DNA of 23,038 nucleotides from Clostridia bacterium (GTDB taxonomy: Bacteria; Bacillota; Clostridia; TANB77; RGIG9151). The DNA lies in contig JAEEXS010000015.1 of NCBI GenBank assembly GCA_016287855.1, positions 1 through 23,038 on the forward strand. Direction: 5' to 3'. Each line of letters opens with the position of its first letter. Positions within the stretch are counted from its first letter, which is position 1. Below the pieces are notes generated by a model. It worked only from the letters and a program-made list of their open reading frames with translations. It searched no databases and had not been told where the DNA came from. This document shows, piece after piece, positions 5,970 to 23,038 of the stretch. Made by a program: the position numbers and the translations under genes.

Positions 5970-7070
5970 CTATATTCTAACTGGTAATACCATATAAATA
6001 TACTCTTCTCCCTCTATTGGTCTTATAATACAAGGAGAAATTGATGAACCAAAATCTAATACAATTTCAACATCTTCAATAGTTTTTACTGCTTCTATTA
6101 AATATCTAGGATTAAAGCCAATTTCAAGAGGTTTTCCAACACTTTCAATCAAAACTTCTTCCCTAACATTTCCCGTCTGAACCGCACATTCTATAACCAT
6201 CAAATGATCTGATATTGTTATTTTTATTGGTAATTGCTTTTCATCTCTAGACATAACAGCTGCTCTTTCTAAAGAACTAAGTAAAACATTTCTATTAACC
6301 TTAACTCTAAGCTCTTTCTCTTTAGGTATAGCTTGTCTATAATCTAAGAATTTTCCCTCTAAAACTCTTGTAACAGCTGTACAATTAGGTATTTCAAATA
6401 AACTTTGGTTCTTTTCAACACTAATTGTAACTATTTGATCGTCATCTCCTAAAATCTTAGATATATCATTTAATGACTTTCCTGGTATAACAACTGAAAA
6501 ATCTTCTGTTCCTTCTTCTAAATTGACTTTTGTTTGAAGAGCTAGTCTAAAGCCATCTAAAGCCACCATATTCATCATACCATCTTTTTTTTCTAATAAA
6601 CAACCTGTAAAAATAGGCCTAGATTCATCTATTCCTACAGCAAATATTGTTTTTCTTATCATATCCTTTAAATCTACTTGTTTTATTTTTATTTTTTGTT
6701 CTGCGTTTATTTTAGGAAAAACAGGAAAATCATCACTCATTGTTGCTACAATTTTAAATAAAGAACCTTCACATTCAATAACCAACTGGTTTTGATCGTT
6801 TGTTGTTAATTCTATTGTAGAATCAGGTAATTTTCTTATTATCTCTGAAAAGATATTAGCACCTATTATTATATCTCCTTCTTCTTCTATTTTGGTATTT
6901 ATTCTATATTCTATACCAAGCTCTAAATCTGTTGCTGTTATATATAGTGTATTATCTTTTGCTACTAAATGAAAGCATTCTAATATTGGCATAGTTGTTT
7001 TACTAGAAACTGCTTTTTGAGTAGCATTTATACCTACTAAAAGATCTTCCTTTTCTATTGAAAATTTCAT
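5970..7070 (-). CDS. dnaN: DNA polymerase III beta sliding clamp
   Basis: 366 aa, beginning MKFSIEKEDLL..INATQKAVSSKTTMPILECFHL and ending MVLPVRI. It lies directly downstream of dnaA with the SD AAGGAGGAATAGG. Confidence 0.95.
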   Translation of the reverse strand: MKFSIEKEDLLVGINATQKAVSSKTTMPILECFHLVAKDNTLYITATDLELGIEYRINTKIEEEGDIIIGANIFSEIIRKLPDSTIELTTNDQNQLVIECEGSLFKIVATMSDDFPVFPKINAEQKIKIKQVDLKDMIRKTIFAVGIDESRPIFTGCLLEKKDGMMNMVALDGFRLALQTKVNLEEGTEDFSVVIPGKSLNDISKILGDDDQIVTISVEKNQSLFEIPNCTAVTRVLEGKFLDYRQAIPKEKELRVKVNRNVLLSSLERAAVMSRDEKQLPIKITISDHLMVIECAVQTGNVREEVLIESVGKPLEIGFNPRYLIEAVKTIEDVEIVLDFGSSISPCIIRPIEGEEYIYMVLPVRI

Positions 7071-7377
7071 TTTCCTATTCCTCCTTAAAATTATAATTTA
7101 AATATTAAAAAGATATAATAGTTATAGTAATGTTGATAATGTTTATAAGTTGAAAATTTTACGATATAACTAAGTTTCAAAAGTTAATAACATGAGGATA
7201 AATTTTAATATTTTATTCACACTAAAAATTTTTAATGTGAATAGTTTGTTATCCACAATATATTTATAAATTATTAACATTTAAATGTTGATAGTTTATA
7301 TATTAGAAAACAAGCTTTTTGTATGTTAATAAAATTTTGTAATAGTCTAAATTTCAAAGTGTTTCATATGTGGAAAA
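7071..7377. other. oriC segment (dnaA-dnaN intergenic) with a DnaA-box cluster and an AT-rich candidate unwinding element
   Basis: A perfect TTATCCACA lies at 7249-7257. One-mismatch boxes are TTATTCACA 7213-7221, TGAGGATAA 7193-7201 (rc TTATCCTCA), TGTTGATAA 7131-7139 (rc TTATCAACA) and TGTGGAAAA 7369-7377 (rc TTTTCCACA). Weaker boxes lie at 7236-7244 and 7287-7295. The stretch 7081-7130 next to dnaN is almost pure A/T. Confidence 0.7.
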
Positions 7378-8712
7378 TTAATAAAATAGAATTTTTTTAA
7401 TTTCTTCAATTTTTTTATTAAGCTCAGAATCTTCTTCAATATTCTTTGAAATCTTATTACAAGCATGAATAACGGTTGAATGGTCTCTTTTTCCAAATTC
7501 AAAGCCTATTTTCGGTAAAGACATGTTTGCAACATCTCTACATAGATACATTGCAATTTGTCTAGGAATTGCGATATCAGCGCTTTTTTTAGTTGATTTT
7601 AGATCTTCTACTTTTATATTAAAATATTTTGAAACAACTTTTTGAATAAGGTCTATTGTAATTGTTTTGGTAGGCGCGTTTGTAATGTCTTTTAATGCTT
7701 CTTTAGCTAAATCTAAAGTTAAAGGTTTATTGTTTAAATGTGCCAAAGCCAAAACCCTATTTAATGATCCTTCTAACTCTCTTATATTAGAATCTACTCT
7801 TTCAGCAATAAAGGCATTTATTTCATCTGGAACAGTTATACCATCAAGTTGCGCTTTTTTACTGAGTATTGCAATTCTAGTTTCATAGTCAGGTGCTTGT
7901 ACATCAGCCGTTAGTCCCCATTCAAATCTAGATCTTAACCTATCTTCTAAAGGTTCAATATCTTTTGGAGGTCTATCACTAGATATTATAATTTGCTTAT
8001 TAGCTTCATATAACGTATTAAAAGTATGGAAAAACTCTTCTTGTGTACCTTCTTTTCCAGCTATAAACTGAATATCATCTACTAAAAGAACATCAACATT
8101 TCTATATCTTTTTCTAAAAGCATTATTTCCTTCTGCACCCTGTTCTTTAATAGCATTTATAAAATCAATTATAAATTTTTCACATGTTATGTAAAGCACT
8201 TTTTGTTCAGGATGTTGTTGAAGTATGTAATGACCTATAGCATGCATCAAATGTGTTTTTCCTAAACCTACACCACCATATAAAAACAAAGGATTATAAG
8301 CTTTTGCAGGAGATTCAGCAACTGCTAGTGCAGCTGCATGAGCAAATCTATTGTTATTCCCTATTACAAAGTTTTCAAAAATATATCTAGGATTTAATCC
8401 AGTTGGAGTCTCATCCATATTTTTTTGACCTGGAAGCTTTATTTCTTCTTGTTTTTTAGCCTCTTCAGGTAAAAGATATTTTATATCTAAATCAACATTT
8501 TTAACGTATTTTATAGTATTTTTCAATAATTCATGTAAATTGGTTTGTAAATAGGTTTTATGAAAATCTGTAGGAACCTCTATAAAAAGAGTATTATTTT
8601 CAATATAAACAGGTTTAATAGGCGAAATCCAAGTATTAAAACTAATTACAGTTATTTCACCTTTTAAGCAATCTATAATTTTTTGCCATTCGTCGGTTGA
8701 GATATTTGCCAT
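7378..8712 (-). CDS. dnaA: chromosomal replication initiator DnaA
   Basis: 444 aa with Walker A GGVGLGKTHL, Walker B LLVDDIQF, sensor SDRPPKD, and the C-terminal DNA-binding helix FGKRDHSTVIHACNKI. Confidence 0.97.
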   Translation of the reverse strand: MANISTDEWQKIIDCLKGEITVISFNTWISPIKPVYIENNTLFIEVPTDFHKTYLQTNLHELLKNTIKYVKNVDLDIKYLLPEEAKKQEEIKLPGQKNMDETPTGLNPRYIFENFVIGNNNRFAHAAALAVAESPAKAYNPLFLYGGVGLGKTHLMHAIGHYILQQHPEQKVLYITCEKFIIDFINAIKEQGAEGNNAFRKRYRNVDVLLVDDIQFIAGKEGTQEEFFHTFNTLYEANKQIIISSDRPPKDIEPLEDRLRSRFEWGLTADVQAPDYETRIAILSKKAQLDGITVPDEINAFIAERVDSNIRELEGSLNRVLALAHLNNKPLTLDLAKEALKDITNAPTKTITIDLIQKVVSKYFNIKVEDLKSTKKSADIAIPRQIAMYLCRDVANMSLPKIGFEFGKRDHSTVIHACNKISKNIEEDSELNKKIEEIKKILFY

Positions 8713-9027
8713 ATTAGTCTCCTTTCAAAAAAATTAAACAAAAATCGCATAAAAACAAAGTTTATAAACAAAAAATTTCAAAGCATCACTATTTGTATAT
8801 GTTTTACCAACATGGGAATAATATAAAGTTATCCACATAGTTATGCACATGTGTTGATAAAGCATAAATAAAAGCTTTGAAATTTTTATCTTTTGTAATT
8901 AAAGTATTTTCGCATTGTTGATAAATTGTTGAATTAACAATATATATCAATATCAGTAACACTATAACAGAAAAAAGTATTATTTTCAAGAAAAAAATGA
9001 ATTAAGATTTTAAAATTCATATTTATA
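8713..9027. other. oriC segment upstream of dnaA, holding a DnaA-box cluster and the dnaA promoter region
   Basis: A perfect TTATCCACA lies at 8829-8837. TTATGCACA lies at 8841-8849. TGTTGATAA (rc TTATCAACA) occurs at 8852-8860 and 8917-8925. The three clustered boxes are bracketed by a perfect 14-nt inverted repeat, AAAAATTTCAAAGC 8771-8784 and GCTTTGAAATTTTT 8874-8887. Confidence 0.65.
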
Positions 9028-9056
9028 TTGAAATAGGGAATTAAACAATATAAAAT
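9028..9056 (+). promoter_or_regulatory. candidate sigma-A promoter of pcrA
   Basis: TTGAAA (9028-9033), a 17-nt spacer, then TAAAAT (9051-9056). This lies about 25 nt upstream of the pcrA ATG at 9081. Confidence 0.4.
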
Positions 9057-9080
9057 GTTTAGAGGAAAGAAGGTTAGAAG

Positions 9081-11342
9081 ATGATAGATTTAACTAAGTT
9101 AAATAAAGAACAATTAGAAGCTGTAAAGACTACAGAAGGCCCTTTATTAGTAATAGCAGGAGCGGGTTCAGGAAAAACAAGAGTTTTAACATATAGAATA
9201 GCTTATTTAATGGATGAAAAGAGTGTAAAACCTTATAATATATTGGCAATTACTTTTACAAATAAAGCTGCAAAAGAAATGAAGGAAAGAGTAGAAGATT
9301 TAGTAGGGGAGAGGGCACGAGATATATGGATATCTACTTTTCATGCAGCATGTGTAAGAATCTTACGGCGAGATATAGAAAAGATAGGCTATGACAAAAA
9401 TTTTGTTATTTTCGATACATCAGATCAAAAGACTTTAATAAAAGAATGTCAGAAAGAAGCTAATTTAGATGATAAAAACTTTTCATATCAATATTTAATA
9501 AGCGAAATAAGCAAGGCAAAAAACCAGCTAATAACAGCAAAAGACTATTTACGTCAAAATCAAACTAATTTTAGATTGGCTAAAGTCGCTGAAGTTTATG
9601 AATTGTATGAAAAAAGACTTAAAGAGAATAATGCTTTAGATTTTGATGATTTAATAATGAAAACTACAGAGCTTTTTCTATCAAATCCAGATATTTTGGT
9701 TTATTACCAAGATAAATTTAAATACATATTAATAGACGAATACCAAGATACTAACACAGCACAATTTACGTTAGTAAACCTACTTGCAGCAGGAAGTGGT
9801 AATTTATGCGTAGTAGGGGATGATGATCAAAGCATATATGGCTGGAGAGGCGCAGATATGCGGAATATATTGGATTTTGAGAAAGCTTTTCCAGGTGCAA
9901 AAACAATAAAACTAGAGCAAAACTATAGATCTACAGGAATAATACTAAATGCAGCAAATGAAGTTATAAAGAACAATGAAAACAGAAAAAGTAAAAAATT
10001 ATGGACAAAAAACGAAGAAGGGGAGCAAATACAGTTATATAGAGCAGATGATGAAAGAGATGAGGCTAAATATATAATAAATGAAATAAAAAGCATAGTA
10101 GATAGAGGTCAAAAATATTCAGATATAGGTGTTTTATACAGAATAAACGCACAATCGAGAATAATAGAAGATTATCTAATAAGCGAAGCTTTACCATACA
10201 AGGTAATAGGAGGACTAAAATTCTACGATAGAAAAGAAATAAAAGACGTTATGGCTTATTTAAGGGTATTATATAACCCAATGGATAATATAAGCCTTAA
10301 AAGGATAATAAATGAACCCAAAAGAGGTATAGGTAATACAACTTTAGAGAATGTTCAAAAAATTGCAACTGAAAACAATGTTTCTTGCTGGGAAATCTTA
10401 CGAAACGTAGATGTATAACGGGATATAAGTCGTTCAAAAAATGGAATAAAAGAGTTTATTAACGTAATGGAAAAGATAAAAGAAGAGGTAAATAAAGAAA
10501 ATCTTTTGGTATCTCAAATAATAAAGATGGTAGTGAACGAGACAGGGTATATAAGTGCATTAGAAGCAGAAGATAGTATAGAAAATCAAACAAGAATAGA
10601 AAATATTGCTGAATTTATATCAGTTGCAGAAGAATATGAAAAAGAAAGCTCTGAACCAAGCTTAGCTGACTTTTTAGAGAATATGGCTTTAATATCTGAT
10701 TTAGATACTAATGATGGTGAAGAAAGTGAATATGTGACGTTAATGACGATGCATAGTGCAAAAGGCCTAGAATTTCCAATAGTATTTATTCCAGGAATGG
10801 AAGAAGGGGTTTTCCCAGGGTATAGATCTATGGGAGATGAGGCAGAAATAGAAGAAGAAAGACGGTTATGTTATGTTGCAATAACAAGGGCAAGGGAAAA
10901 ACTTTATATAACCTGTGCAAGAAGAAGAACTTTATTTGGAAACACTAGTATAAATAAACCGTCTAGGTTTTTAGAGGAAATACCGGAAAGTCTAATGGAT
11001 GGATATACAAAAGAGAGTAATAATCAAGAATATATGGCAAATGACTGGTATTCTAGTAGTGTGATGGAATATAGTTTGCCAGATACATATAAAAATAACA
11101 TAGAAGTTGCTATGGGAAGTAATTATATAAAGAATATACAAGGCCATAAACAACCTGTAACGCAGATGCACGCTGACTTATCTGTTTTCGAAGAAGGTAA
11201 GTTTGTAATGCATAAAAGGTTTGGTGCAGGAGTAATTACCAAAATAACACCTGAAGAAGATGATTTAATGCTTGAAATATTATTTGAAAAAGCAGGGAAG
11301 AAGAGATTGATGGCAAAATATGCTCAATTGGAGGTGCAGTAG
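9081..11342 (+). pseudogene. pcrA: PcrA/UvrD-type ATP-dependent DNA helicase interrupted by a single in-frame TAA at 10416-10418
   Basis: Track ORFs 9081..10418 (445 aa, Walker A AGAGSGKT, DEYQDT, GDDDQSIYGWRGA, QNYRS) and 10467..11342 (291 aa, TLMTMHSAKGLEFP, VAITRAREKL) are in the same frame (both coordinates are 0 mod 3). The 48 nt between them also read in frame as RDISRSKNGIKEFINV. The total would be about 753 codons, a normal PcrA length. Confidence 0.8.
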
Positions 11343-11934
11343 GATTTTTACGGTAAAAGAAGAGGCAAGAGAAGAGTTTATAGAGAAAAAATCTAGATTT
11401 ATAGCGACTATTTTTCCTATAAACTCAAAAGAAGAAGCGGAAAATATTATACAAAGGGTAAAAAAAGAGTTTTGGGATGCAAAACATAATGTTTATGCAT
11501 ATATATTACCCAATAATATAAGTAAATATAGTGATGATGGTGAGCCGCAAGGAACAGCAGGGTTGCCTGTTTTTACTGTACTTAATAAAAAAGAGTTAGT
11601 AAATGTTCTAGTAGTTGTTACAAGGTATTTTGGAGGTGTTTTATTAGGAAAAGGCGGCTTAATAAGAGCATATTCTGAATCAGTGAAAAATGTCTTAGAA
11701 AAAGCAAAAATTTATGAAATAATAGAAAAAACTTGTATTGAAATAGAGTGTGAATATTCAATAAAAGATAAAATTTTAGATTATATAACGAAACATGAAA
11801 TCCAGCATACATCTGTATTTGAGAACAATGTAAAGTTTAAAATAGAAACCCCTAAGGGTTCAGAAAATAAAATTATAGAGGATATAGTCCAAATCACAAA
11901 TAACAAGGCAAATTATCGTATTTTGTCGGAATAA
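11320..11934 (+). CDS. yigZ: YigZ/IMPACT-family (UPF0029) protein
   Basis: 204 aa with KKSRFIATIFP, HNVYAYIL, DDGEPQGTAGLP and TRYFGGVLLGKGGLIRAY, all typical of the IMPACT N-terminal domain. The start is uncertain because the ATG at 11320 overlaps the pcrA 3' end. Confidence 0.8.
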   Translation: MLNWRCSRIFTVKEEAREEFIEKKSRFIATIFPINSKEEAENIIQRVKKEFWDAKHNVYAYILPNNISKYSDDGEPQGTAGLPVFTVLNKKELVNVLVVVTRYFGGVLLGKGGLIRAYSESVKNVLEKAKIYEIIEKTCIEIECEYSIKDKILDYITKHEIQHTSVFENNVKFKIETPKGSENKIIEDIVQITNNKANYRILSE

Positions 11935-12038
11935 AGCGAAAAAAAACAGAAATCATCGACAAATTCTAACATATTTTTACAAGACAAGCTTTTATAATAT
12001 TCTTGTGTTTTGTCTAAAAAATAAAGGGGGAATTTGCG

Positions 12039-12812
12039 ATGAACGAAGGAATAAGCGTTTTAATTGCTGATGGTAACGTAGATATAGCAAATAAATTAAA
12101 AGATTATCTATCACATCAGAAAGATATTTCGGTAGAAGGAGTAGTTGACAATGGTATAGACACGATTAGCATGATTTCAGAAAAGAAACCAGATATCGTA
12201 ATTTTAGAAATGTTACTACCCAAAATAGACGGAATAGGCGTACTAAAAGCAGTACAAGACAAGAAAATAGAAAAAAGACCTATATTTTTGGTTTTATCTT
12301 CCTTATCTCAAGATATTTTGATAAGAGAAGCTATTTCTTTGGGAGCGTATTGTTTTATGTTAAAACCATTTGATTTCTCTATTCTAACAGAAAGAATAAG
12401 AAGGATAATGCGAAAAGAAAAGAATGTAAAAATGGTAAAAAGAGAAAGAAAGATAACGGATGAAAATCTAGAACAAGAAATAACTAATATTATGCATGAT
12501 ATAGGCGTTCCGGCACATATTAGGGGTCATCAATACTTAAGAGAAGCAATTATACTTTCAATCAAGAATCAAGATTTATTAGCGTCTGTTACAAAGACGT
12601 TATATCCTACCGTAGCAACTACATATAATACAACGCCAAGTAGGGTAGAAAGAGCAATAAGACATGCTATAGAAGTGGCTTGGAGTAGGGGAAAGCTAGA
12701 CACCCTGCAAAATGTTTTTGGATATACAATAAACGTAATAAAAGGAAAACCAACTAATAGTGAATTTATTGCAATGATTGCAGATAGAATGAAATTAGAA
12801 ATGAAAGTATAA
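12039..12812 (+). CDS. spo0A: Spo0A, sporulation master response regulator, with an atypical receiver domain
   Basis: 257 aa. The C-terminal domain carries unmistakable Spo0A signatures: [47 protein letters not shown] and [18 protein letters not shown]. The N-terminal domain is CheY-like (MLKPF Lys present). An SD AAAGGGGG lies upstream. Confidence 0.9.
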
Positions 12813-12858
12813 AAAACAAAACCTGTAATGCAAGATACATCAGCATTACAGGTTTTTG
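12811..12858. terminator. bidirectional rho-independent terminator between spo0A and the convergent orphan gene
   Basis: The stem ACCTGTAATGC (12821-12831) pairs with GCATTACAGGT (12843-12853) around an 11-nt loop. An A-run lies on the left and a T-run on the right, so a U-tract follows the hairpin on both strands. Confidence 0.7.
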
Positions 12859-12859
12859 C

Positions 12860-13429
12860 TTAATATGTTCTGCCAGTAATTTGTAACTTATCTTCAGGAG
12901 ATAAAGCATCATATTCACTTTCATTTATAGGAATGCCATCATAAGAATCCATTATAGGATAATAAAATGAAGGAATATCCTGAACTAAATATGGTCTATA
13001 TTGGTCACAATAGTAAACATCAGGGCAGTAATTTAAATTTTGGATATCTGAACTATCAATTGGTTTTGATTTTTTGTCACATAGCGACAAAGCAGATAAA
13101 TTTGTACTATGAGATTGAGCTATAAAATTTGAATGTTCAGAATTATAATAATTATAAAACTGTTCAAAATATTCTTTTTTCTTTTCTTCATCCATCTCAT
13201 TTGCTGGCAAAGCCGGTAAAGAAGATGGAAAGTAATTTGAAAAATCCTTTTTTGGACAAGTAAAAATAGACACTTTTTTACCTGATGGAAGATCTTTAGC
13301 AATTTTTCTACACATAATGCAGTATGCACAGGAATATGGAATCGAACCAGAAACAGCGGTATTTATGGAAGTTGTTGCATCATCAAGAGTTCCATTTACA
13401 AAATCAGCAATTTTATCAAACCAGCCCAT
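12860..13429 (-). CDS. hypothetical Cys/Tyr-rich protein (189 aa), no recognised family
   Basis: I trimmed the track ORF 12860..13438 to the ATG at 13429-13427, which is preceded by the SD AGGTGA with a 5-nt spacer. The upstream carboxypeptidase stop (TGA 13437-13435) lies inside this SD region, indicating translational coupling. Composition matches the host. Confidence 0.55.
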   Translation of the reverse strand: MGWFDKIADFVNGTLDDATTSINTAVSGSIPYSCAYCIMCRKIAKDLPSGKKVSIFTCPKKDFSNYFPSSLPALPANEMDEEKKKEYFEQFYNYYNSEHSNFIAQSHSTNLSALSLCDKKSKPIDSSDIQNLNYCPDVYYCDQYRPYLVQDIPSFYYPIMDSYDGIPINESEYDALSPEDKLQITGRTY

Positions 13430-13434
13430 TATTA

Positions 13435-14697
13435 TCACCTATTTCCTTTCTTTCTACGATTTCTTTTAATAAATTTTCTAATTTCATTGAAAATTCTAAG
13501 GCTTACGCCTAATATTATAACAGAAATAACGAAATAAAGCAATATTCTAAGGATAACAAATATAACATGTTCTTTTTTTACATCATCTTGGGCTACTAAG
13601 TTGACTATTCCAATAGGTTTACCATCCATTGTATAAGAAATAGTGCCAAGCACATCTCCTTTATTTATAGGAGCAACTATCTTGTTATTTATAGTAGTAA
13701 CATGGTCAAACACAGGTGTATCCCCATTTTTAACGGTTATGTTTAAGCTATCTGCAGCTGCTAAATTTAATGTTTTTTTGCCAGATTTTTTAGGAACACA
13801 ACTTGTAATTATTTTATTTTGAGCTACAAGTTGTTCATTATGATAGTTTTCAAAGCCATAATCAAATAATGAAATAGTGTCTGTAAAAGCAGTTGACTTG
13901 TTTACAGGAATAATACTACCTCCAAGAACTACAGATATTAAATCTAAGCCATCTTTTGAAGCAGAAGCTACTAAGCAATTACCAGCTTGAGTGGTAAAAC
14001 CAGTTTTAATACCAGTAGCGTATGGGTAAAAATACTCCCCACCAGATAATAATAGTTTATTAGTATTTAAGAATGTTCTAGAGGTTTTAGAAATATTTGT
14101 AGCTGGCATATCGTATTTTGATTGAGAAACTATTTCTCTAAACTTTTCTATTTTCATACAAGCACAAGCTATTTTAGCTAAATCTGCAGCGGTTGTATAG
14201 TGATTATCATTATGTAACCCATTTGCATTTACAAAATTAGAATTTATTGCACCGAGATTTTTAGCAGTTGAGTTCATTAAATCAGCAAAATCAGATACAG
14301 AGCCAGATATATGTTCCGCTAAAATGTTTGCAGCATCGTTTCCAGAAGGAAGCATAAGACCGTACAAGACTTGTTCTAAATTAAGAATCTCATTTTCAGA
14401 GAAATAAGCTAATGAACTACCTTTTGGAACCGACATAACAGCAGTTCTAGATGGAATAATCTGTTCTTTCATGGTATATCCTTGAGAAAGTGCAATATAA
14501 GCGGTTAAAATCTTTGTTGTACTAGCAGGATATACTTTTTGATTTGAGTTTTTTTCAAATAATACTTCACCTGTTTTACCATCTATTAAAATCGCTGAAT
14601 TGCTGTATACATCTATCGCATAGGATTTTGATATAAGTAATAAAAAGGTAAATACAAATAAAAGTAAAAATCTTTTTCGTAATATAAAGTTTTTCAT
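13435..14697 (-). CDS. D-alanyl-D-alanine carboxypeptidase (low-MW PBP, PBP5/DacB/DacF family) with a C-terminal membrane anchor
   Basis: 420 aa with an N-terminal signal-like segment and the three penicillin-binding motifs: SxxK (ASTTKILT), SxN (PSGND) and KTG (IKTGFT). A hydrophobic C-terminal anchor (VIFVILRILLYFVISVIILGV) follows. Confidence 0.85.
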   Translation of the reverse strand: MKNFILRKRFLLLFVFTFLLLISKSYAIDVYSNSAILIDGKTGEVLFEKNSNQKVYPASTTKILTAYIALSQGYTMKEQIIPSRTAVMSVPKGSSLAYFSENEILNLEQVLYGLMLPSGNDAANILAEHISGSVSDFADLMNSTAKNLGAINSNFVNANGLHNDNHYTTAADLAKIACACMKIEKFREIVSQSKYDMPATNISKTSRTFLNTNKLLLSGGEYFYPYATGIKTGFTTQAGNCLVASASKDGLDLISVVLGGSIIPVNKSTAFTDTISLFDYGFENYHNEQLVAQNKIITSCVPKKSGKKTLNLAAADSLNITVKNGDTPVFDHVTTINNKIVAPINKGDVLGTISYTMDGKPIGIVNLVAQDDVKKEHVIFVILRILLYFVISVIILGVSLRIFNEIRKFIKRNRRKKGNR

Positions 14698-14726
14698 TTT
14701 AAACTCCTTTACAAATATTTACTGTA

Positions 14727-14755
14727 TTGACAAAAATTTGAAAATATACTATGAT
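14727..14755 (+). promoter_or_regulatory. candidate sigma-A promoter of comEA
   Basis: TTGACA (14727-14732), a 17-nt spacer, then TATGAT (14750-14755). Confidence 0.4.
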
Positions 14756-14778
14756 TATTCAAAAGAGGTGGAAAAATT

Positions 14779-15408
14779 TTGAAAATAAACAAGAAAATCA
14801 TAGCAGCTATATCTATCATTACGCTGGTAATATCGGCAATATTATATAATATACTTTATACTAATAATAAAAAAAATGAAATATTTAATGAATTCGATTT
14901 TGAAGAAGAAAATAACATTGAAAGCGTCGACGAAAGAGAGGAAACAAAAACAATTTTTATTGATATTGGCGGGGAAGTTATAAATCCGGGATTATATGAG
15001 TTAAAAGAAAATGCACGAGTAAATGATGCAATAATAGCTGCTGGAGGTACTACAAACAAAGCAGATTTAACTGAGATTAATTTAGCATATGTTTTATCTG
15101 ATGCCTTAAAAATTACTATTCCTAAAAAGGAAGAGGGACAAAAAGAAAACTCAAAGAAAAATACAAGTATAAGTTCTTCGTTAATGACATCAAAAGCAGA
15201 TGTATCCCAAGTTTCAGGATTGATAAACATTAATACTGCAACAAAAAATCAACTAAAAAATTTAGAAGGAATAGGAGATTCAACTGCCCAAAAAATAATA
15301 GATTATAGGACTCAAAACGGACAATTTAACAAAACAGAAGATATTAAGAATGTTTCAGGTATCGGAGAAAGCAAATATCAGAAAATAAAAGATAAAATAT
15401 CAATTTAA
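14779..15408 (+). CDS. comEA: ComEA-like competence DNA receptor (SLBB plus helix-hairpin-helix)
   Basis: 209 aa with a TTG start after the SD AGAGGTGG. It has an N-terminal TM helix, VNPGLYEL..RVNDAI (SLBB-like), and a C-terminal ININTATKNQLKNLEGIGDSTAQKIIDYR..F....DIKNVSGIGESKYQKIK (tandem HhH). Confidence 0.75.
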   Translation: MKINKKIIAAISIITLVISAILYNILYTNNKKNEIFNEFDFEEENNIESVDEREETKTIFIDIGGEVINPGLYELKENARVNDAIIAAGGTTNKADLTEINLAYVLSDALKITIPKKEEGQKENSKKNTSISSSLMTSKADVSQVSGLININTATKNQLKNLEGIGDSTAQKIIDYRTQNGQFNKTEDIKNVSGIGESKYQKIKDKISI

Positions 15409-15440
15409 AACGCATGTGGCTCGCAACAAAGCGAGCCACA
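15401..15440 (-). terminator. GC-rich hairpin acting as terminator of the GC-rich minus-strand ORF
   Basis: A perfect 10-bp stem, TGTGGCTCGC (15415-15424) with GCGAGCCACA (15431-15440), around a 6-nt loop. On the minus strand it is followed by TGCGTTTTAA. On the plus strand no T-run follows. Confidence 0.5.
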
Positions 15441-15459
15441 CGGATTGTATGAAATGTGT

Positions 15460-15951
15460 TCAGAAGGGGGAAATGCAGAGGATGTTGGCGCTGTCGAGAA
15501 TAACGGGGATGGCCGCAGTACCAGGTACACGAACGTAAGTTATGTAGGAATATTCGGAGTGGAACCACATATCCTCGAACCATTCCATAAGGAGAATTTC
15601 AAAATCCTTTGAAAAACCTATCTTTTCTTCAGAAATAACCATGAAGTACTGGTAGCCATCAGGCTCCATTTTAACCTTGAAATGCTTTTTGGTGTGAGGT
15701 GTAGGGAATTGCTCACCCTCGTCACGGTAATACTCGAGGTCGGTGATAGGGGTGATGCTGATGTGGTCTGCTTTCCAGTATCCGCTGGGCAAAGCAGTAA
15801 CGTCTAACTCGGAAAATGGGATGTCAGCGAGGCAGGGAAGAACGACAGTTTTGTTGACCTTCTGCAGATACCAGCCGGTATGCTGCTTTAGGCAATCACC
15901 TTGAACGAAGACAGCAGTAGTGTTTCCAGTATCAGTCTCTTTGGGTTTCAT
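15460..15951 (-). CDS. hypothetical acidic, aromatic-rich protein (163 aa) of foreign base composition
   Basis: The ATG at 15951-15949 has a perfect SD AGGAGG (15965-15960) 8 nt upstream. The ORF fills the GC-rich island exactly. I recognise no motif, TM segment or signal peptide. Confidence 0.7.
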   Translation of the reverse strand: MKPKETDTGNTTAVFVQGDCLKQHTGWYLQKVNKTVVLPCLADIPFSELDVTALPSGYWKADHISITPITDLEYYRDEGEQFPTPHTKKHFKVKMEPDGYQYFMVISEEKIGFSKDFEILLMEWFEDMWFHSEYSYITYVRVPGTAAIPVILDSANILCISPF

Positions 15952-16008
15952 TCCGGTGTCCTCCTATAGTTTCATCAGATTTAAATATTAATTTATTTTT
16001 TCAACGCT

Positions 16009-16037
16009 ATTTTACATAAAAAGTAGAATTCTGTCAA
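16009..16037 (-). promoter_or_regulatory. candidate sigma-A promoter driving the GC-rich ORF
   Basis: On the minus strand: TTGACA (rc of 16032-16037), a 17-nt spacer, then TAAAAT (rc of 16009-16014). The -35 box is the left arm of a 13-bp perfect palindrome shared with the rpmH promoter. Confidence 0.4.
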
Positions 16038-16052
16038 TATGTTTTTTAAATA

Positions 16053-16081
16053 TTGACAGAATAAGCCCTATGTAGTATAAT
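16053..16081 (+). promoter_or_regulatory. consensus sigma-A promoter of the rpmH-rnpA operon
   Basis: TTGACA (16053-16058), an exact 17-nt spacer, then TATAAT (16076-16081). It lies 53 nt upstream of the rpmH ATG. Confidence 0.6.
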
Positions 16082-16134
16082 GATAAAGCCTTTATAGGAA
16101 AAAATAAAAGTTTTTAAGGAAGTGGGTGTAGATT

Positions 16135-16269
16135 ATGAAAAGGACATTTCAACCTAATAACAGAAAAATGAAAAAAGTTCATGGTTTTAGAACAAGAATG
16201 AAAACCGCTGCTGGAAGAAAAGTTCTTAGTGCAAGACGTGCTAAAGGAAGAGAAGTTCTTTGTGTTTAA
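16135..16269 (+). CDS. rpmH: 50S ribosomal protein L34
   Basis: Too short for the ORF track. My translation is [44 protein letters not shown] (44 aa), the canonical L34 sequence, in its usual position before rnpA. Confidence 0.95.
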
Positions 16270-19835: not shown

Positions 19836-21704
19836 ATGAGTTTTTTTATAGATGATTATGATGTAGCTGTAATTGGGGCAGGACATGCTGGTTGTGAAGC
19901 AGCTTTAGCTAGTGCGAGATTAGGGGCAAAAACTATAATTTTTGCAATTAATTTAGATAGCATTGCAAATATGCCATGTAATCCGAGCATAGGAGGTACA
20001 TCTAAAGGCCATTTAGTGCGTGAAATAGATGCATTAGGTGGAGAAATGGGCAAAAATACAGATAAAACATTTATCCAATCAAGAATGTTAAATAAATCAA
20101 AAGGCCCAGCAGTATTTTCTTTGAGAGCGCAAGCAGATAGAAGAAGATATCAGATGGAAATGAAACATACTTTGGAAATGCAAAAAAATCTAGATATAAA
20201 TCAAGCAGAAATAGCTGAAATAAAAGTAGAAGATGATAAAGTGGTTTCAATAAAAACATCTAGAGGCGGAGAATATCATGTAAAAGCGGTAGTTCTTGCA
20301 ACAGGTACTTACCTAAAAGGAAAAATATTTTTAGGAGAAGTAAGCTATGAAGGTGGACCAGATGGTCTATTTCCTGCTAATTTTTTGTCAAAGTCGTTAT
20401 TAGATAATGGAGTAGAGTTACTTAGATTTAAAACTGGAACACCAGCTAGAATTAATAGAAAAAGCATTGATTTTTCAAAGATGGAAGTACAAAAAGGAGA
20501 CGAAAATATTGTACCTTTTTCTTTAGATGATGAAGTTAAAGAATTTCAGCAACAAGATTGTTATTTAACATATACAAACGAAGAAACACACAAAATAATT
20601 AGAGAAAATTTACATCGTTCGCCTTTATATGCTGGAATGATAGAGGGAACAGGACCTAGATATTGCCCATCTATTGAAGATAAGGTTGTAAGATTTGCAG
20701 ATAAAAAAAGGCATCAAATATTTATTGAGCCAATTGGATTAGATACAGATGAAATGTACGCACAAGGAATGAGTTCATCACTCCCAGAAGATGTTCAAAT
20801 AGCAATGTACAGAACAATTCCAGGACTTGAACATGCTGAATTTACAAGACCTGCATATGCTATTGAATATGATTGTATAGATCCATCAGAATTAAAATTG
20901 TCATTAGAATATAAAAAGATATCAGGGTTATTTTTTGCAGGGCAAACAAATGGAAGTTCAGGATATGAAGAAGCTGCATGCCAAGGTTTAATCGCAGGAA
21001 TTAATTGTGCTCAAAAAATAAAAGGAAAAGAACCTGTTATTTTAGATAGAACACAAGGCTATATTGGTGTATTAATAGATGATTTAGTTACAAAAGGAAC
21101 AAATGAGCCATATAGAATGATGACTTCAAGGGCTGAATATAGGCTACTTTTAAGGCAAGATAATGCAGATTTAAGACTTACAGAAATAGGTCATGATGTT
21201 GGATTAATTTCAGAAGAAAGATATCAAAGATTTTTAAATAAAAAAGCTAATATAGAAAAAGAGATAAATAGATTAAAAAATAAGGTTGTAAAACCTACAA
21301 AAGAAGTTAATCAAATACTTGAAAAGTATGGAACAACACCACTTTCAACAGGTTCAAAAATGGCAGAATTAATAAAAAGAACAGAACTTAGTTATGAAGT
21401 ATTAAAAGAAATTGATGATGATAGACCATTTCTTGCACCGGCAGAAAAAGAAGAAGTAGAAATACAGATAAAATATGAAGGATATATAAAAATGGAAGAA
21501 GAACAAGTAAAAAAATTTAAAAAACTCGAAAATAAAAAGCTTTCAGAAGACATCGAATATTCTTCAATAAATGGTTTAAGTCTAGAAGCAAGACAAAAAC
21601 TAGATAAAATTAAACCAACTTCAATCGGTCAAGCTTCAAGAATATCAGGGGTTTCACCAGCTGATATAAATGTACTATTAATATATCTACAAATAAAGAA
21701 ATAA
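19836..21704 (+). CDS. mnmG: tRNA uridine 5-carboxymethylaminomethyl modification enzyme MnmG (GidA)
   Basis: I trimmed the track ORF to the ATG at 19836 after the SD AGAGGTG. The N-terminus is [23 protein letters not shown] (FAD fold). [29 protein letters not shown] and a GidA C-terminal domain follow. Confidence 0.95.
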
Positions 21705-21717
21705 GGAGATATTATTT

Positions 21718-22440
21718 ATGAATAGTGAATTTAAAAATAAAATAACAGATTTAAGCAAAAAAATAAACATAGATTTAACAGAAAAACAAATACAAGATTT
21801 TTATAATTACATGAATTTATTATTAGAATGGAATGAAAAAGTTAATTTAACAGCTATTACAGAAATGGATGATGTAATTTTAAAACATTTTATAGACTCT
21901 ATAACAATATTAAAATATTTAAAAGAAAATGAAAGTATTATAGATGTTGGAACAGGAGCAGGATTTCCAGGAATACCAGTTGCAATAATGAATTTAAGAT
22001 TTAACATTACATTATTAGATTCTTTAAATAAGAGAATAACATTTTTAGATGAGGTTTGCAAAAAGTTAGAATTAAATAATATAAAAACAATTCATGGTAG
22101 AGCAGAAGATTTTGGACAAGATAGCAAAACAAGAGAAAAATATGATATATCAGTATCAAGAGCAGTAGCTAATTTGGCAACACTTTCTGAATATCTACTT
22201 CCATTTGTAAAGGTTGGTGGAATGTGTATTTGTATGAAAGGACCAGATGCAGAAAAGGAAATAGAAGATGCAAAATTTGCTATAAAAGAATTAGGTGGAG
22301 AAATTGAAAAAGTTGAAAAGTTTGTGTTACCTGACACAGATATGGAAAGAAATATTATATTAATAAAGAAGATAAAAGAAACACCAAAAAAGTATCCACG
22401 TAAAGCTGGAACACCTTCTAAACAACCACTAAAAAAATAA
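21718..22440 (+). CDS. rsmG: 16S rRNA (guanine527-N7)-methyltransferase RsmG (GidB)
   Basis: 240 aa with WNEKVNLTAIT and the SAM motif DVGTGAGFPGIP. It is in the canonical position after mnmG. Confidence 0.9.
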   Translation: MNSEFKNKITDLSKKINIDLTEKQIQDFYNYMNLLLEWNEKVNLTAITEMDDVILKHFIDSITILKYLKENESIIDVGTGAGFPGIPVAIMNLRFNITLLDSLNKRITFLDEVCKKLELNNIKTIHGRAEDFGQDSKTREKYDISVSRAVANLATLSEYLLPFVKVGGMCICMKGPDAEKEIEDAKFAIKELGGEIEKVEKFVLPDTDMERNIILIKKIKETPKKYPRKAGTPSKQPLKK

Positions 22441-22447
22441 AAAATTT

Positions 22448-22546
22448 AGGTTATCCTTATACTAATGTTTGATTTGGTAATGTTTTACACAGGTTGAGTG
22501 TGAAACAAAACTTAAAACATTTGATGTAATTAGGATAACTTTTTTG
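22448..22546 (+). terminator. long compound hairpin followed by a T-run; candidate rsmG operon terminator or small structured RNA
   Basis: There are three co-linear nested helices: GTTATCCT 22450-22457 with AGGATAAC 22532-22539; AATGTTT 22464-22470 with AAACATT 22515-22521; and TGTTTTACAC 22481-22490 with GTGTGAAACA 22498-22507. TTTTTT follows at 22541-22546. Confidence 0.4.
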
Positions 22547-22560
22547 TTATCAAATGAATT

Positions 22561-22580
22561 TTCGACAAAATTCGACAAAA
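22561..22580 (-). promoter_or_regulatory. two perfect tandem Spo0A-box (0A box, TGTCGAA) sequences with 10-bp phasing
   Basis: The plus strand reads TTCGACAAAATTCGACAAAA. The reverse complement gives TGTCGAA at 22567-22561 and 22577-22571. It is an exact 10-bp tandem duplication about 100 bp upstream of the soj -35 box. Confidence 0.5.
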
Positions 22581-22676
22581 AAATTATCTAATTAGTATAC
22601 TTAAAGTGGGAGTAAGAAATACTGATATTTTCCAAGGAAATATAAACTACTTTCTTAATGAATTGTAAAAAAATTA

Positions 22677-22705
22677 TTGACAGATTTAGAATATTTGTAT
22701 ATTAT
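22677..22705 (+). promoter_or_regulatory. candidate sigma-A promoter of soj
   Basis: TTGACA (22677-22682), a 17-nt spacer, then TATTAT (22700-22705). Confidence 0.4.
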
Positions 22706-22756
22706 TATATATATTAAAATAAATGAACTAAAGCATATAGAAATGGAGGAACAAAA

Positions 22757-23038
22757 TTGGGAAAAATAATATCTATAGCAAACCAAAAAGGTGGTGTAGG
22801 AAAGACTACAACTACAGTTAACTTAAGTGCTATATTGGCAAAAAAAGGAAAAAGAGTTTTATTAATTGATGCTGATCCACAAGGAAATGCAACAAGTGGA
22901 ATAGGAATGGATAAAGATATAGAATTATCAACTTATGATTTATTGGTTTCTGACCAACCTGCTGTTGACATAATTAGAAAAACAGAAATAAAAAATCTAT
23001 ATATATGTCCGTCAAATTTAAATTTAGCAGGAGCTGAG
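22757..23038 (+). CDS. soj: ParA-family chromosome partitioning ATPase Soj; partial, continues past the right window edge
   Basis: A TTG start at 22757 follows the SD GGAGGA. My translation is [48 protein letters not shown], containing the deviant Walker A KGGVGKT. The frame is open to the window end. Confidence 0.9.

Follow-up and report, generated by a model that had tools for sequence, protein, structure and literature searches.

The 23,038-nt contig JAEEXS010000015.1 of an uncultured ruminant-gut bacterium of the class Clostridia (assembly GCA_016287855.1; the whole stretch is hereafter called the window) encodes, between comEA and rpmH, a single GC-rich open reading frame (ORF) of 163 codons (15460–15951, minus strand). 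We consider it probable, with moderate confidence in the explanation as a whole, that this ORF is a resident gene with a GC content held at a synonymous equilibrium, that its old alleles are shuffled by recombination, and that balancing selection at an antagonistic or recognition interface would account for their persistence.

The composition step at this ORF is sharp. The window as a whole has 30.3% GC and the segment 15409–15966 has 47.1%; in a sliding calculation, the GC-richest 492-bp stretch of the entire window begins at 15409 (0.474). With the feature left out, sliding GC has a mean of 0.299 (standard deviation 0.037, maximum 0.392), which places the feature about 4.7 standard deviations out. 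The hand counts of a first-pass annotation of this DNA were reproduced almost to the nucleotide, with 224 of 480 positions (46.7%) at 15481–15960, where 225 had been reported, and 16 of 60 (26.7%) at 16081–16140, and the step coincides, as had been proposed, with a minimal monocistronic expression unit. The ORF itself deviates from its host both in total GC (46.5%, or 0.465 against 0.299) and in GC at third codon positions (GC3; 0.549 against 0.112–0.236 in the remaining 18 ORFs of the window), in agreement with the earlier remark that its codons differ from those of every other gene in the window.

The same site across the clade

A comparison of the comEA-rpmH interval, one of the checks that the first-pass annotation had called for, showed the slot to be filled throughout the clade contigs. 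Every homologue with a readable context was found in this slot, divergent from rpmH and convergent with comEA. Occupied slots were present in the conspecific contigs (L001–L014 and L025) and in contigs of other species (L015–L018, L019, L020, L021, L022, and L026), which encode proteins with 21–31% identity to the window protein. Altogether, the homologues span at least nine lineages and 21–91% identity to the window protein, and have a GC3 of 0.31–0.59 within hosts of 27–33% GC. The gene is in the slot in every contig examined from lineages with an RnpA at least 74% identical to that of the window, with the qualification that all slot contigs except L021 and L022 were retrieved via the protein itself, so that empty slots inside the clade were not sampled. 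RnpA was used as the handle for a scan of genome contigs; in metagenome contigs, a scan with RnpA gave no match and a scan with the ORF gave one extra allele.

The only empty slot was found in L023, a more distant metagenome-assembled genome (RnpA 56% identical) with the same gene order (PcrA, Impact, Spo0A, hypothetical protein, PBP5, ComEA, rpmH, RnpA). Here the slot consists of 358 bp with hairpin repeats only, and no remnant of the gene was found in it; absence from the orthologous site in close relatives was not observed. The synteny of L023 around the empty slot implies that the gene was gained once in the clade ancestor or lost outside the clade. The two related GC-rich hairpin repeats at 6486–6845 of L023 (tgtagggacagc...gctgtc[ct]) are reminiscent of repetitive extragenic palindrome (REP)-like elements.

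These comparisons bear directly on the main proposal of the first-pass annotation, namely, that the ORF is a single-gene cassette recently acquired from a GC-richer donor and still carrying an un-ameliorated donor signature. The composition step that matches one expression unit, the orphan status of the family, and the empty slot in the sister lineage, which implies that the gene entered or left the slot once, are all in line with such an import. However, the relatives all occupy the same slot and have elevated GC3, down to 21–23% identity, the very finding that the annotation had named beforehand as telling against its own proposal. No mobility signature is associated with the ORF: searches revealed no tRNA in the window, no direct or inverted repeats flanking the ORF, and no integrase or insertion sequence among the neighbors, which are housekeeping genes, in accord with what had been noted initially. 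No copy of the gene was detected among viral, plasmid, and phage sequences (IMG/VR, PLSDB, and INPHARED), and among 15 billion proteins none was found in a GC-richer context where contexts were readable. Together with the saturated divergence between alleles, which would have erased a donor signature, and with the host-like amino acid usage and AT-rich untranslated regions (UTRs) described in the next section, these findings make a foreign origin of this kind very improbable. The locus has the same architecture in more than 20 independent contigs, which come from different samples, and it is therefore not an assembly artifact. By these comparisons, the gene has long resided in a single clade of uncultured, AT-rich Clostridia of the gut and rumen.

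The GC excess is confined to synonymous sites of the coding sequence

In the host genes, the third-position frequencies are A.47, C.065, G.086, and T.375, whereas in the ORF they are A.16, C.40, G.12, and T.32; on the sense strand, third-position C is thus up about sixfold and A down about threefold. The C frequency at third positions (C3) is.37 in the close alleles and.30 in the distant homologues. The shift stops at the edge of the coding sequence, with the 5′ UTR and promoter (15952–16050) having 24% GC. The amino acid composition follows the host: the summed fraction of Phe, Tyr, Met, Ile, Asn, and Lys (FYMINK) is.28–.39 in the family compared to.365 ±.044 in the host, and that of Gly, Ala, Arg, and Pro (GARP) is.13–.21 compared to.186 ±.031. 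When the window protein was recoded with host codons, its GC content came to 33.1% (GC3.19) instead of the observed 46.5% (GC3.55). Given the host-like amino acid usage and the AT-rich UTRs, the GC anomaly is purely synonymous.

Between alleles, the number of synonymous substitutions per synonymous site (dS) ranges from 1.1 to more than 2.9, that is, synonymous sites are saturated. Since GC3 is retained in spite of this saturation, a GC3 of about 0.5 represents the local equilibrium, and a donor signature would have decayed; neither shifted amino acid usage nor decay over time was observed. An anomaly that is confined to the coding sequence, persistent, and accompanied by host-like amino acid usage leaves selection on synonymous sites of the coding sequence. 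Two other candidates were considered and rejected. Regional mutation bias is ruled out by the AT-rich UTRs and the host-like amino acid usage. GC-biased gene conversion was set aside by reasoning, since recombination is at least as frequent in the flanks as in the gene and yet flank GC3 is only about 0.15–0.2, and since the step is confined to the coding sequence.

Part of the excess of C over G in the ORF is an expected lagging-strand effect; the C3/G3 ratio is 2.2 in the ORF versus 0.8–1.6 in two other head-on genes. Separately, synonymous-site identity peaks at 0.77–0.80, compared to 0.55 overall, over residues 56–66 (SGYWKADHISI; 15755–15787), and 7 of 10 alleles are identical at the nucleotide level over about 34 nt of this region, which could reflect recent gene conversion or an element embedded at the nucleotide level.

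Diverged alleles in near-identical genomes

Comparison with the conspecific contigs revealed a divergence of the GC-rich ORF that is out of proportion to that of the surrounding genes. The backbone of these contigs is 94–100% identical to the window at the nucleotide level. DnaA, Spo0A, RnpA, YidD, YidC, Jag, and MnmE are 95–100% identical across the conspecific contigs that cover them, and between the window and L001, the first six of these proteins are 100% identical and MnmE 99%. By contrast, the protein encoded by the GC-rich ORF is only 64–69% identical between the window and contigs L001–L008 of the same species. For the window and L001, both dS and the number of nonsynonymous substitutions per nonsynonymous site (dN) are 0.000 in rpmH, rnpA, and yidD; dS is 0.008–0.029 and dN 0.000–0.003 in jag, mnmE, and yidC; dS is 0.098–0.214 and dN 0.001–0.048 in dnaA, spo0A, the PBP5 gene, and comEA; in the GC-rich ORF, dS is 2.36 and dN 0.25. 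Allelic divergence is therefore far above that of the flanks (dS of 2.36 versus 0.000–0.21).

The identity profile between the window and L001 drops sharply at 15400–16000. Divergence begins right after the -10 element of the ORF promoter and stops at the comEA stop codon, and the rpmH side is again 97–100% identical. From the sliding identity, these boundaries, and the mosaics described below, the exchangeable allele unit appears to be the whole transcript of about 600 bp (15409–16008, minus strand), which is 62–69% identical between conspecific contigs with flanks at 94–100%. The term cassette, introduced in the first-pass annotation, is apt insofar as this transcript is the unit that differs and is exchanged between strains, and misleading insofar as it was meant to denote a foreign import.

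At least five allele classes (61–91% amino acid identity) coexist in the sampled contigs. Contigs L001–L006 share one allele, with 0–1 differences over the 492 nt of the ORF, although they differ at up to 70 of 1,351 nt in yidC-rnpA (11–70 for most pairs) and at 1–14 of 631 nt in comEA. Other contigs are mosaics: L009 resembles the window over alignment columns 100–350 (6 differences) and L010 over columns 401–516 (1 difference, versus 20 to the window), L025 is identical to L010 over columns 1–450, and L008 switches partners near columns 351–450. The 5′ UTR types are also reassorted between loci. Thus, one allele can be found in several backgrounds, and mosaics and sharp breakpoints are present. 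Judging from these contigs, homologous recombination has moved the alleles of one species between genomes, the breakpoints lying in the conserved promoter on one side and at the comEA stop codon on the other, and the alleles have also recombined with one another.

A locus-specific hypermutation mechanism, either resembling a diversity-generating retroelement (DGR) or arising from head-on conflict between transcription and replication, and perhaps GC-biased, would also concentrate divergence in one gene. Between conspecific contigs, dS of the ORF is indeed more than 10-fold that of the adjacent genes, and the gene is head-on and near the origin of replication (oriC), as the first-pass annotation had recognized: DnaA-box clusters at 7131–7377 and 8829–8924 and a change in the sign of the GC skew near 8.5–9 kb locate oriC about 6.5 kb left of the ORF, which thus faces the rightward fork. 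Nevertheless, the near-identity within alleles against the diversity of the flanks, the mosaics, and the reassorted UTRs indicate that old alleles are shuffled by recombination rather than generated by hypermutation. Hypermutation is further at odds with the discreteness of the allele classes, with the in-frame distribution of insertions and deletions over the whole gene at dN/dS of 0.1–0.2, with the AT-rich 5′ UTR, which is equally diverged without any gain in GC, and with the lack of a reverse transcriptase or template repeat within 10 kb on either side. We regard this mechanism as even less probable than the import of a foreign cassette.

The retention of many old alleles under purifying selection suggests balancing (negative frequency-dependent) or diversifying selection. 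A different source of the same diversity would be repeated introgression of alleles from an unsampled sister species or from a GC-richer extrachromosomal reservoir. Introgression does occur in this lineage: the C-terminal part of MnmG and RsmG of the window are 54–56% identical to those of all other lineages, which are 72–76% identical among themselves, and a second gene close to the ORF (12860–13438) is also replaced between strains. The conspecific alleles, however, cluster together (61–91% identity), whereas the homologues of other sampled species are only 21–31% identical to the window protein, and the nearest outlier is P0009 (45% identical, with a context that was not read). In addition, the searches of IMG/VR, PLSDB, and INPHARED detected no extrachromosomal copy, and repeated replacement of a 600-bp unit with breakpoints at its edges would still require selection for novelty, which makes this alternative a variant of the explanation that we prefer. 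Taken as a separate account, it appears rather improbable, albeit distinctly less so than either import from a foreign donor or hypermutation.

Protein family and predicted structure

The window protein has an isoelectric point (pI) of 4.92, contains 14% aromatic residues, and lacks a signal peptide and a transmembrane (TM) segment (maximum KD19 hydropathy 1.57), which bears out its initial description as an acidic, aromatic-rich protein with no TM segment. Most family members have a pI of 4.7–5.5, and one has a pI of 6.9. A word-indexed search of 5.8 billion clusters retrieved eight relatives at 64–89% identity, all unnamed, and an exhaustive hidden Markov model (HMM) search of 1.84 billion representatives showed the family to comprise only 16 clusters, all of 154–180 amino acids. 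In the alignment of 24 family sequences, the length and the position of the stop codon are conserved and the insertions and deletions are in-frame. Conserved motifs include N-[LT]-x-T at the N-terminus, GW, PD..YY.F, FS..F.IL, and a C-terminal PL.LD....C[IV]SPF directly before the stop codon. Pairwise dN/dS between alleles is 0.08–0.23. By all these measures of its coding sequence, the ORF is a true gene that encodes a protein and evolves under purifying selection.

No motif had been recognized in this protein by eye, and profile searches led to the same result. Searches against Pfam, NCBIfam, and PDB sequences yielded no consistent match for the window protein or for all 24 members; PADLOC and PHROGs yielded none for the window protein and only single marginal ones among the 24 members. 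Modeling with AlphaFold2 (AF2), which the first-pass annotation had suggested, gave a confident all-beta model with 12 strands from the 24-sequence alignment (pLDDT 86.5, pTM 0.79); the model from a 9-sequence alignment was poor (pLDDT 52.7), and confidence was reached only after distant members were added. A Foldseek search with this model against PDB and BFVD found no neighbor: the best template modeling (TM) scores were 0.21–0.23, and there was no match at E ≤ 0.001. The predicted structure is therefore a candidate new fold. At TM scores up to 0.23, the listed structures (T-cell receptor/immunoglobulin, acetylcholine-binding protein, single-stranded DNA-binding protein, and phage tail tube) are noise, and the tail-tube or Hcp-like matches were not taken as evidence. 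An internal domain duplication was ruled out (hhalign probability 0.2%).

GC-rich islands in AT-rich genomes often mark structured RNAs, and the GC-rich segment could in principle be a structured non-coding RNA or DNA element in which the ORF is incidental. Against this, Rfam gave no match either at E ≤ 1 or at the gathering threshold, the fold energy of the mRNA does not stand out from that of shuffled sequences (z = -0.5), substitutions are codon-patterned with a dN/dS of 0.1–0.2, insertions and deletions are in-frame, the stop codon is conserved, and the AF2 model, which is driven by coevolution, reaches a pLDDT of 86.5. The likelihood of a non-coding element is, in our judgment, negligible. 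Antisense ORFs that overlap the gene are only short chance ones, of 55 amino acids at most.

Proposed explanation and the codon bias

On the evidence above, the gene entered the rpmH-comEA slot, about 6.5 kb from oriC, once in the ancestor of the clade, or else was lost outside it. Its GC-rich codons are held at equilibrium by selection on the coding sequence, and discrete, deeply diverged alleles are swapped via homologous recombination, for which the conserved promoter and the comEA side serve as flanks. Beyond this, we propose that balancing or diversifying selection keeps many old alleles in the population. The product, a cytoplasmic protein that would be well expressed, would act at an interface of antagonism or recognition, and its counterpart would most likely derive from phages or competitors, which would explain the multi-allele polymorphism. 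A well-expressed interface protein is suggested by the old alleles in combination with the near-consensus promoter, the perfect Shine-Dalgarno (SD) sequence, and the strong terminator.

Several points weigh against this explanation. The locus contains no partner gene and no toxin or defense neighbor, and the protein has no match to a defense family. One family sequence, P0010, is a frameshifted copy of P0009, mostly identical to it over the first ~80 residues and out of frame thereafter, which implies that the gene is dispensable at least sometimes. High expression is read from consensus signals only. The conspecific alleles sampled number about 10, mostly on short contigs, and balancing selection is deduced from their pattern only, a pattern that introgression from an unsampled sister species would equally produce. 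Finally, some features of the codon usage are those of a highly expressed gene: C is favored over U at Phe, Tyr, Ile, and Asn codons (S = 1.84–2.67 relative to neighboring genes), ATA falls from 59% to 9–17%, and NNC is preferred at all two-fold pyrimidine-ending codons. A simple account of the codon bias by very high expression is, to us, unlikely but to be reckoned with.

In its full form, this account holds that the GC-rich codons reflect ordinary translational optimization of an extremely highly expressed gene and that the composition is otherwise unremarkable. The near-consensus promoter and perfect SD of the ORF are compatible with it, and the shift at two-fold codons parallels that in the highly expressed genes of Clostridium perfringens, in which UAC, AAC, CAC, and GAC are favored, with selection against AUA and GAU (PMC3522724, Table S1). 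In those same genes, CCC, ACC, GCC, UCC, and CAG are almost absent and AGA makes up 97% (PMC3522724, Table S1), whereas the ORF family uses CCC at 24–41%, ACC at 27–39%, TCC at 21–28%, CAG at 54–58%, and AGA at 0–24%. Thus, CCC, ACC, GCC, TCC, CAG, and CGN are enriched and AGA is avoided, the opposite of both C. perfringens and the L34 gene of the window, with the benchmark consisting of that other species and this one gene. The L34 gene, which alone among the genes of the window is clearly highly expressed, has a C3 of.05 and uses AGA for 6 of its 8 Arg codons. Furthermore, conserved residues show no enrichment in C-ending codons (Mantel-Haenszel odds ratio 0.74, with low power at 21 conserved columns). 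Highly expressed proteins normally evolve slowly, whereas the ORF product is among the fastest-evolving proteins in the locus. We conclude that translational optimization accounts for the GC-rich codons only partly and, in its ordinary form, is a less likely source of them; as the full explanation we consider it doubtful.

Our leading guess for the cause of the bias is selection on the composition of the mRNA or coding DNA, or deliberately non-host codons. Candidate reasons include mRNA stability, translation kinetics of the all-beta protein, independence from the tRNA pool, and tolerance of strong head-on transcription, for which it would matter that C-rich transcripts can be expected to form R-loops poorly. 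A more far-reaching possibility, which we hold only tentatively and think unlikely as a whole, is that selection acts on the GC-rich, C-ending, A-avoiding codons as a trait in their own right, in a new kind of gene near the origin. Such a gene would be a strongly transcribed, head-on, monocistronic unit with a coding sequence kept unlike the host in composition; it would encode a strain-specific determinant with a novel fold and be maintained as a balanced multi-allele polymorphism. Resistance to AU-directed decay, tRNA-pool independence, and fewer R-loops in head-on collisions would be possible reasons for such a trait, and a phage-sensing or immunity specificity factor would be an example of the role of the protein.

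Comparison with known variable loci

The pattern of one allele in several backgrounds, and of distinct alleles in near-identical ones, resembles that of the S-layer cassette of Clostridioides difficile. According to one account of that cassette (PMC6254364, citing Dingle et al. 2013), diverged allele types occupy a fixed site in near-identical genomes through recombinational exchange in conserved flanks, and the allele type is uncoupled from the genomic background. The cassette is multi-gene (slpA, cwp66, cd2790, and secA2; PMC6254364). It encodes a secreted surface protein that is a phage receptor. The unit described here, unlike the S-layer cassette, is a single transcript of about 600 bp, with a product that lacks a signal peptide and TM segment and belongs to no known family, and with GC-rich codons.

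Polymorphism confined to a short block between conserved flanks is also typical of pherotype loci such as comQXP, agr, and comCD. The comQXP block likewise deviates in GC from its surroundings. In Bacillus subtilis, the within-species polymorphism of comQXP lies in a short block with conserved flanks and has been read as diversifying selection for specificity types (PMC4408185). Pherotype loci differ from the locus described here in that they contain a co-evolving set of signal, modifier, and receptor, whereas the ORF is a single gene with no adjacent co-varying partner, and it has no homology to ComQ, ComX, or ComP.

The atypical composition, the narrow taxonomic range, and the absence from the corresponding site of the sister lineage are features that the ORF shares with acquired genomic islets and ORFans, but it differs from these in lacking a mobility signature, in occupying one site clade-wide at saturating divergence, and in the purely synonymous nature of the anomaly. 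With respect to codon usage, it resembles the highly expressed genes of C. perfringens in the shift to C at two-fold pyrimidine codons and in avoiding AUA (PMC3522724), and differs from both that benchmark and L34 in the enrichment of four-fold C-ending codons, CAG, CTG, and CGN and in the avoidance of AGA.

The first-pass annotation had speculated about an immunity, anti-restriction, or anti-defense function. As in such proteins, the product is small, acidic, cytoplasmic, fast-evolving, and variable between strains. Unlike them, it matches no PADLOC or PHROG entry, has no Pfam match that holds across the family, is not on a mobile element, has no toxin or defense neighbor, is syntenically fixed in the core genome near oriC, and is only mildly acidic. 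Such a role is speculative; it has no support from PADLOC or PHROGs, yet the population genetics is compatible with a conflict-type role.

The locus thus belongs with the known allele-switching hypervariable loci, and its combination with a persistent synonymous GC enrichment is new. It provides a counter-example to the inference of horizontal transfer from deviant GC content or codon usage: an excess in GC of 17 points (36 points at third positions) is persistent, at equilibrium, in a resident gene clade-wide. An explanation of the codon bias of this ORF would reveal other selection on synonymous sites in very AT-rich bacteria. The locus also represents a compact allele-switching unit of about 600 bp in the core genome, near oriC, of uncultured ruminant-gut Clostridia; strain-level determinants of this kind are usually tied to interactions with phages or kin, and the unit may help to explain the coexistence of strains in the gut. 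The extreme rarity of the family and the confidently predicted structure with no detectable relative make the protein a good target for structure determination.

Expression signals of the transcript

The coding sequence (15460–15951, minus strand), identified as that of a soluble acidic protein with a predicted all-beta fold by its translation, dN/dS, the 24-sequence alignment, the AF2 model, and GC3, is preceded by a sigma-A-type promoter at 16009–16037 on the minus strand (TTGACA-17-TAAAAT, 11 of 12 positions matching in a consensus scan). The predicted transcription start site follows from the position of this promoter, and the putative AT-rich 5′ UTR occupies 15952–16008 (minus strand); a comparison of 15 loci showed that strain divergence starts here, just past the -10 element. 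The SD sequence AGGAGG at 15960–15965 (minus strand), 8 nt 5′ of the ATG at 15951, and the 163-codon ORF are exactly where they had been placed in the first reading. GGAGG is retained upstream of the compared homologues except in L019, for which the annotated start may be mis-called, with an N-terminal extension.

The ORF promoter is conserved in all species examined. TTGACA (TTGACT in L015 and L021) and TAAAAT are kept in all the distant loci (L015, L019–L022, and L026), and a longer motif in the -10 region, ACTTTTTATGTAAAAT, is kept in L015, L019, L021, and L022, has one change in L020, and is not kept in L026. On the opposite strand, the promoter of rpmH at 16053–16081 (plus strand; TTGACA-17-TATAAT, 12 of 12 in the promoter scan) makes up the conserved recombination flank on the right. 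The two promoters lie back to back, and their -35 boxes form a 13-nt perfect palindrome (ATTCTGTCAATAT / ATATTGACAGAAT; 16028–16062, not assigned to a strand), detected in the inverted-repeat and promoter scans. The ACTTTTTATGTAAAAT motif and the -35 palindrome could be the site of a shared regulator or could couple the two promoters through supercoiling.

An intrinsic terminator, consisting of a hairpin and T-run identified by a terminator scan (15413–15442, minus strand), abuts the comEA stop codon and is the 3′ end of the variable cassette. The perfect 10-bp stem TGTGGCTCGC/GCGAGCCACA at 15415–15440 and the T-run had been described correctly, but the stem is not made of G and C only, as stated, given that it contains 7 G-C and 3 A-T pairs; the scan extended it to 12 pairs (8 G-C) with a loop of 6 at 15442–15413. 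The stems of different alleles vary by compensatory changes (gtggctcgc/gcgagccac, gtgacccgc/gcgggtcac, and atgactcgc/gcgagtcat), and these substitutions, along with the architecture kept between alleles, indicate that the terminator is functional. Among the alleles of the window, L001, and L007–L013, the terminator loops are alike (tttgtt or tttatt) in 9 of 10, with cttttg in L001.

In four distant homologues (L015, 2800–2843; L020, 190–231; L021; and L022), a short hairpin is located directly upstream of the SD sequence. Its stems are compensatory (cctgt/acagg, cttga/tcaag, ccttga/tcaagg, and cccgaa/ttcggg), and the loop resembles aacaat[tc]a. This hairpin, which is not obvious in the window allele or in L026, is possibly a 5′ mRNA stabilizer or a regulatory element.

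Neighboring genes and other variable regions

The neighbors of the ORF were identified by Pfam as ComEA (SLBB and HHH_3 domains) and L34. The convergent comEA gene, also supported by tblastn, is located at 14779–15408 (plus strand) and serves as the left recombination flank; the divergent rpmH gene is located at 16135–16269 (plus strand; PF00468, E = 3e-22). ComEA is moderately variable, with 74–93% amino acid identity among conspecific contigs (dS 0.16–0.36, dN 0.03–0.09), which may result from linkage to the adjacent polymorphism or from independent diversifying selection on the DNA receptor.

In most Firmicutes, dnaA/oriC and rpmH are adjacent. Here they are separated clade-wide by an inserted block of about 7 kb (8712–16135 in the window), which contains pcrA, an Impact-family gene, spo0A, the PBP5 gene with a hypervariable ORF, comEA, and the GC-rich ORF. 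This arrangement puts spo0A, the master regulator of sporulation, about 3 kb from oriC.

The hypervariable ORF next to the PBP5 gene (12860–13438, minus strand; 192 amino acids) overlaps the PBP5 stop codon by 4 bp and is probably co-transcribed with the PBP5 gene. It encodes a Cys-rich protein with a conserved N-terminus (MGWFDK) and no Pfam match, and its GC content is normal (0.30). The protein is 27–34% identical between conspecific contigs (nucleotide identity 0.43–0.52), with neighbors at 97–100%. Its allele types (185 versus 191 amino acids) vary independently of the allele of the GC-rich ORF, and a homologue is present even in L023.

A third island of divergence covers 20400–23038, where the C-terminal part of MnmG is 79% and RsmG 56% identical to the proteins of conspecific contigs; homology to these contigs is lost beyond ~22400. 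The RsmG of the window is an outlier, with 54–56% identity to those of L001, L002, L021, and L022, whereas RsmG proteins of the other lineages are 72–76% identical across species and those of L001 and L002 are 95% identical. The right end of the window therefore either came in by introgression from a distant lineage or is a chimera of the assembly.

Finally, the PcrA/UvrD helicase of the window is split into two ORFs (9081–10418 and 10467–11342) by a single-base nonsense change, TAC to TAA, at 10416–10418, whereas its counterpart in L001 is intact (753 amino acids); the split either marks a pseudogene, is polymorphic between strains, or stems from a sequencing error.

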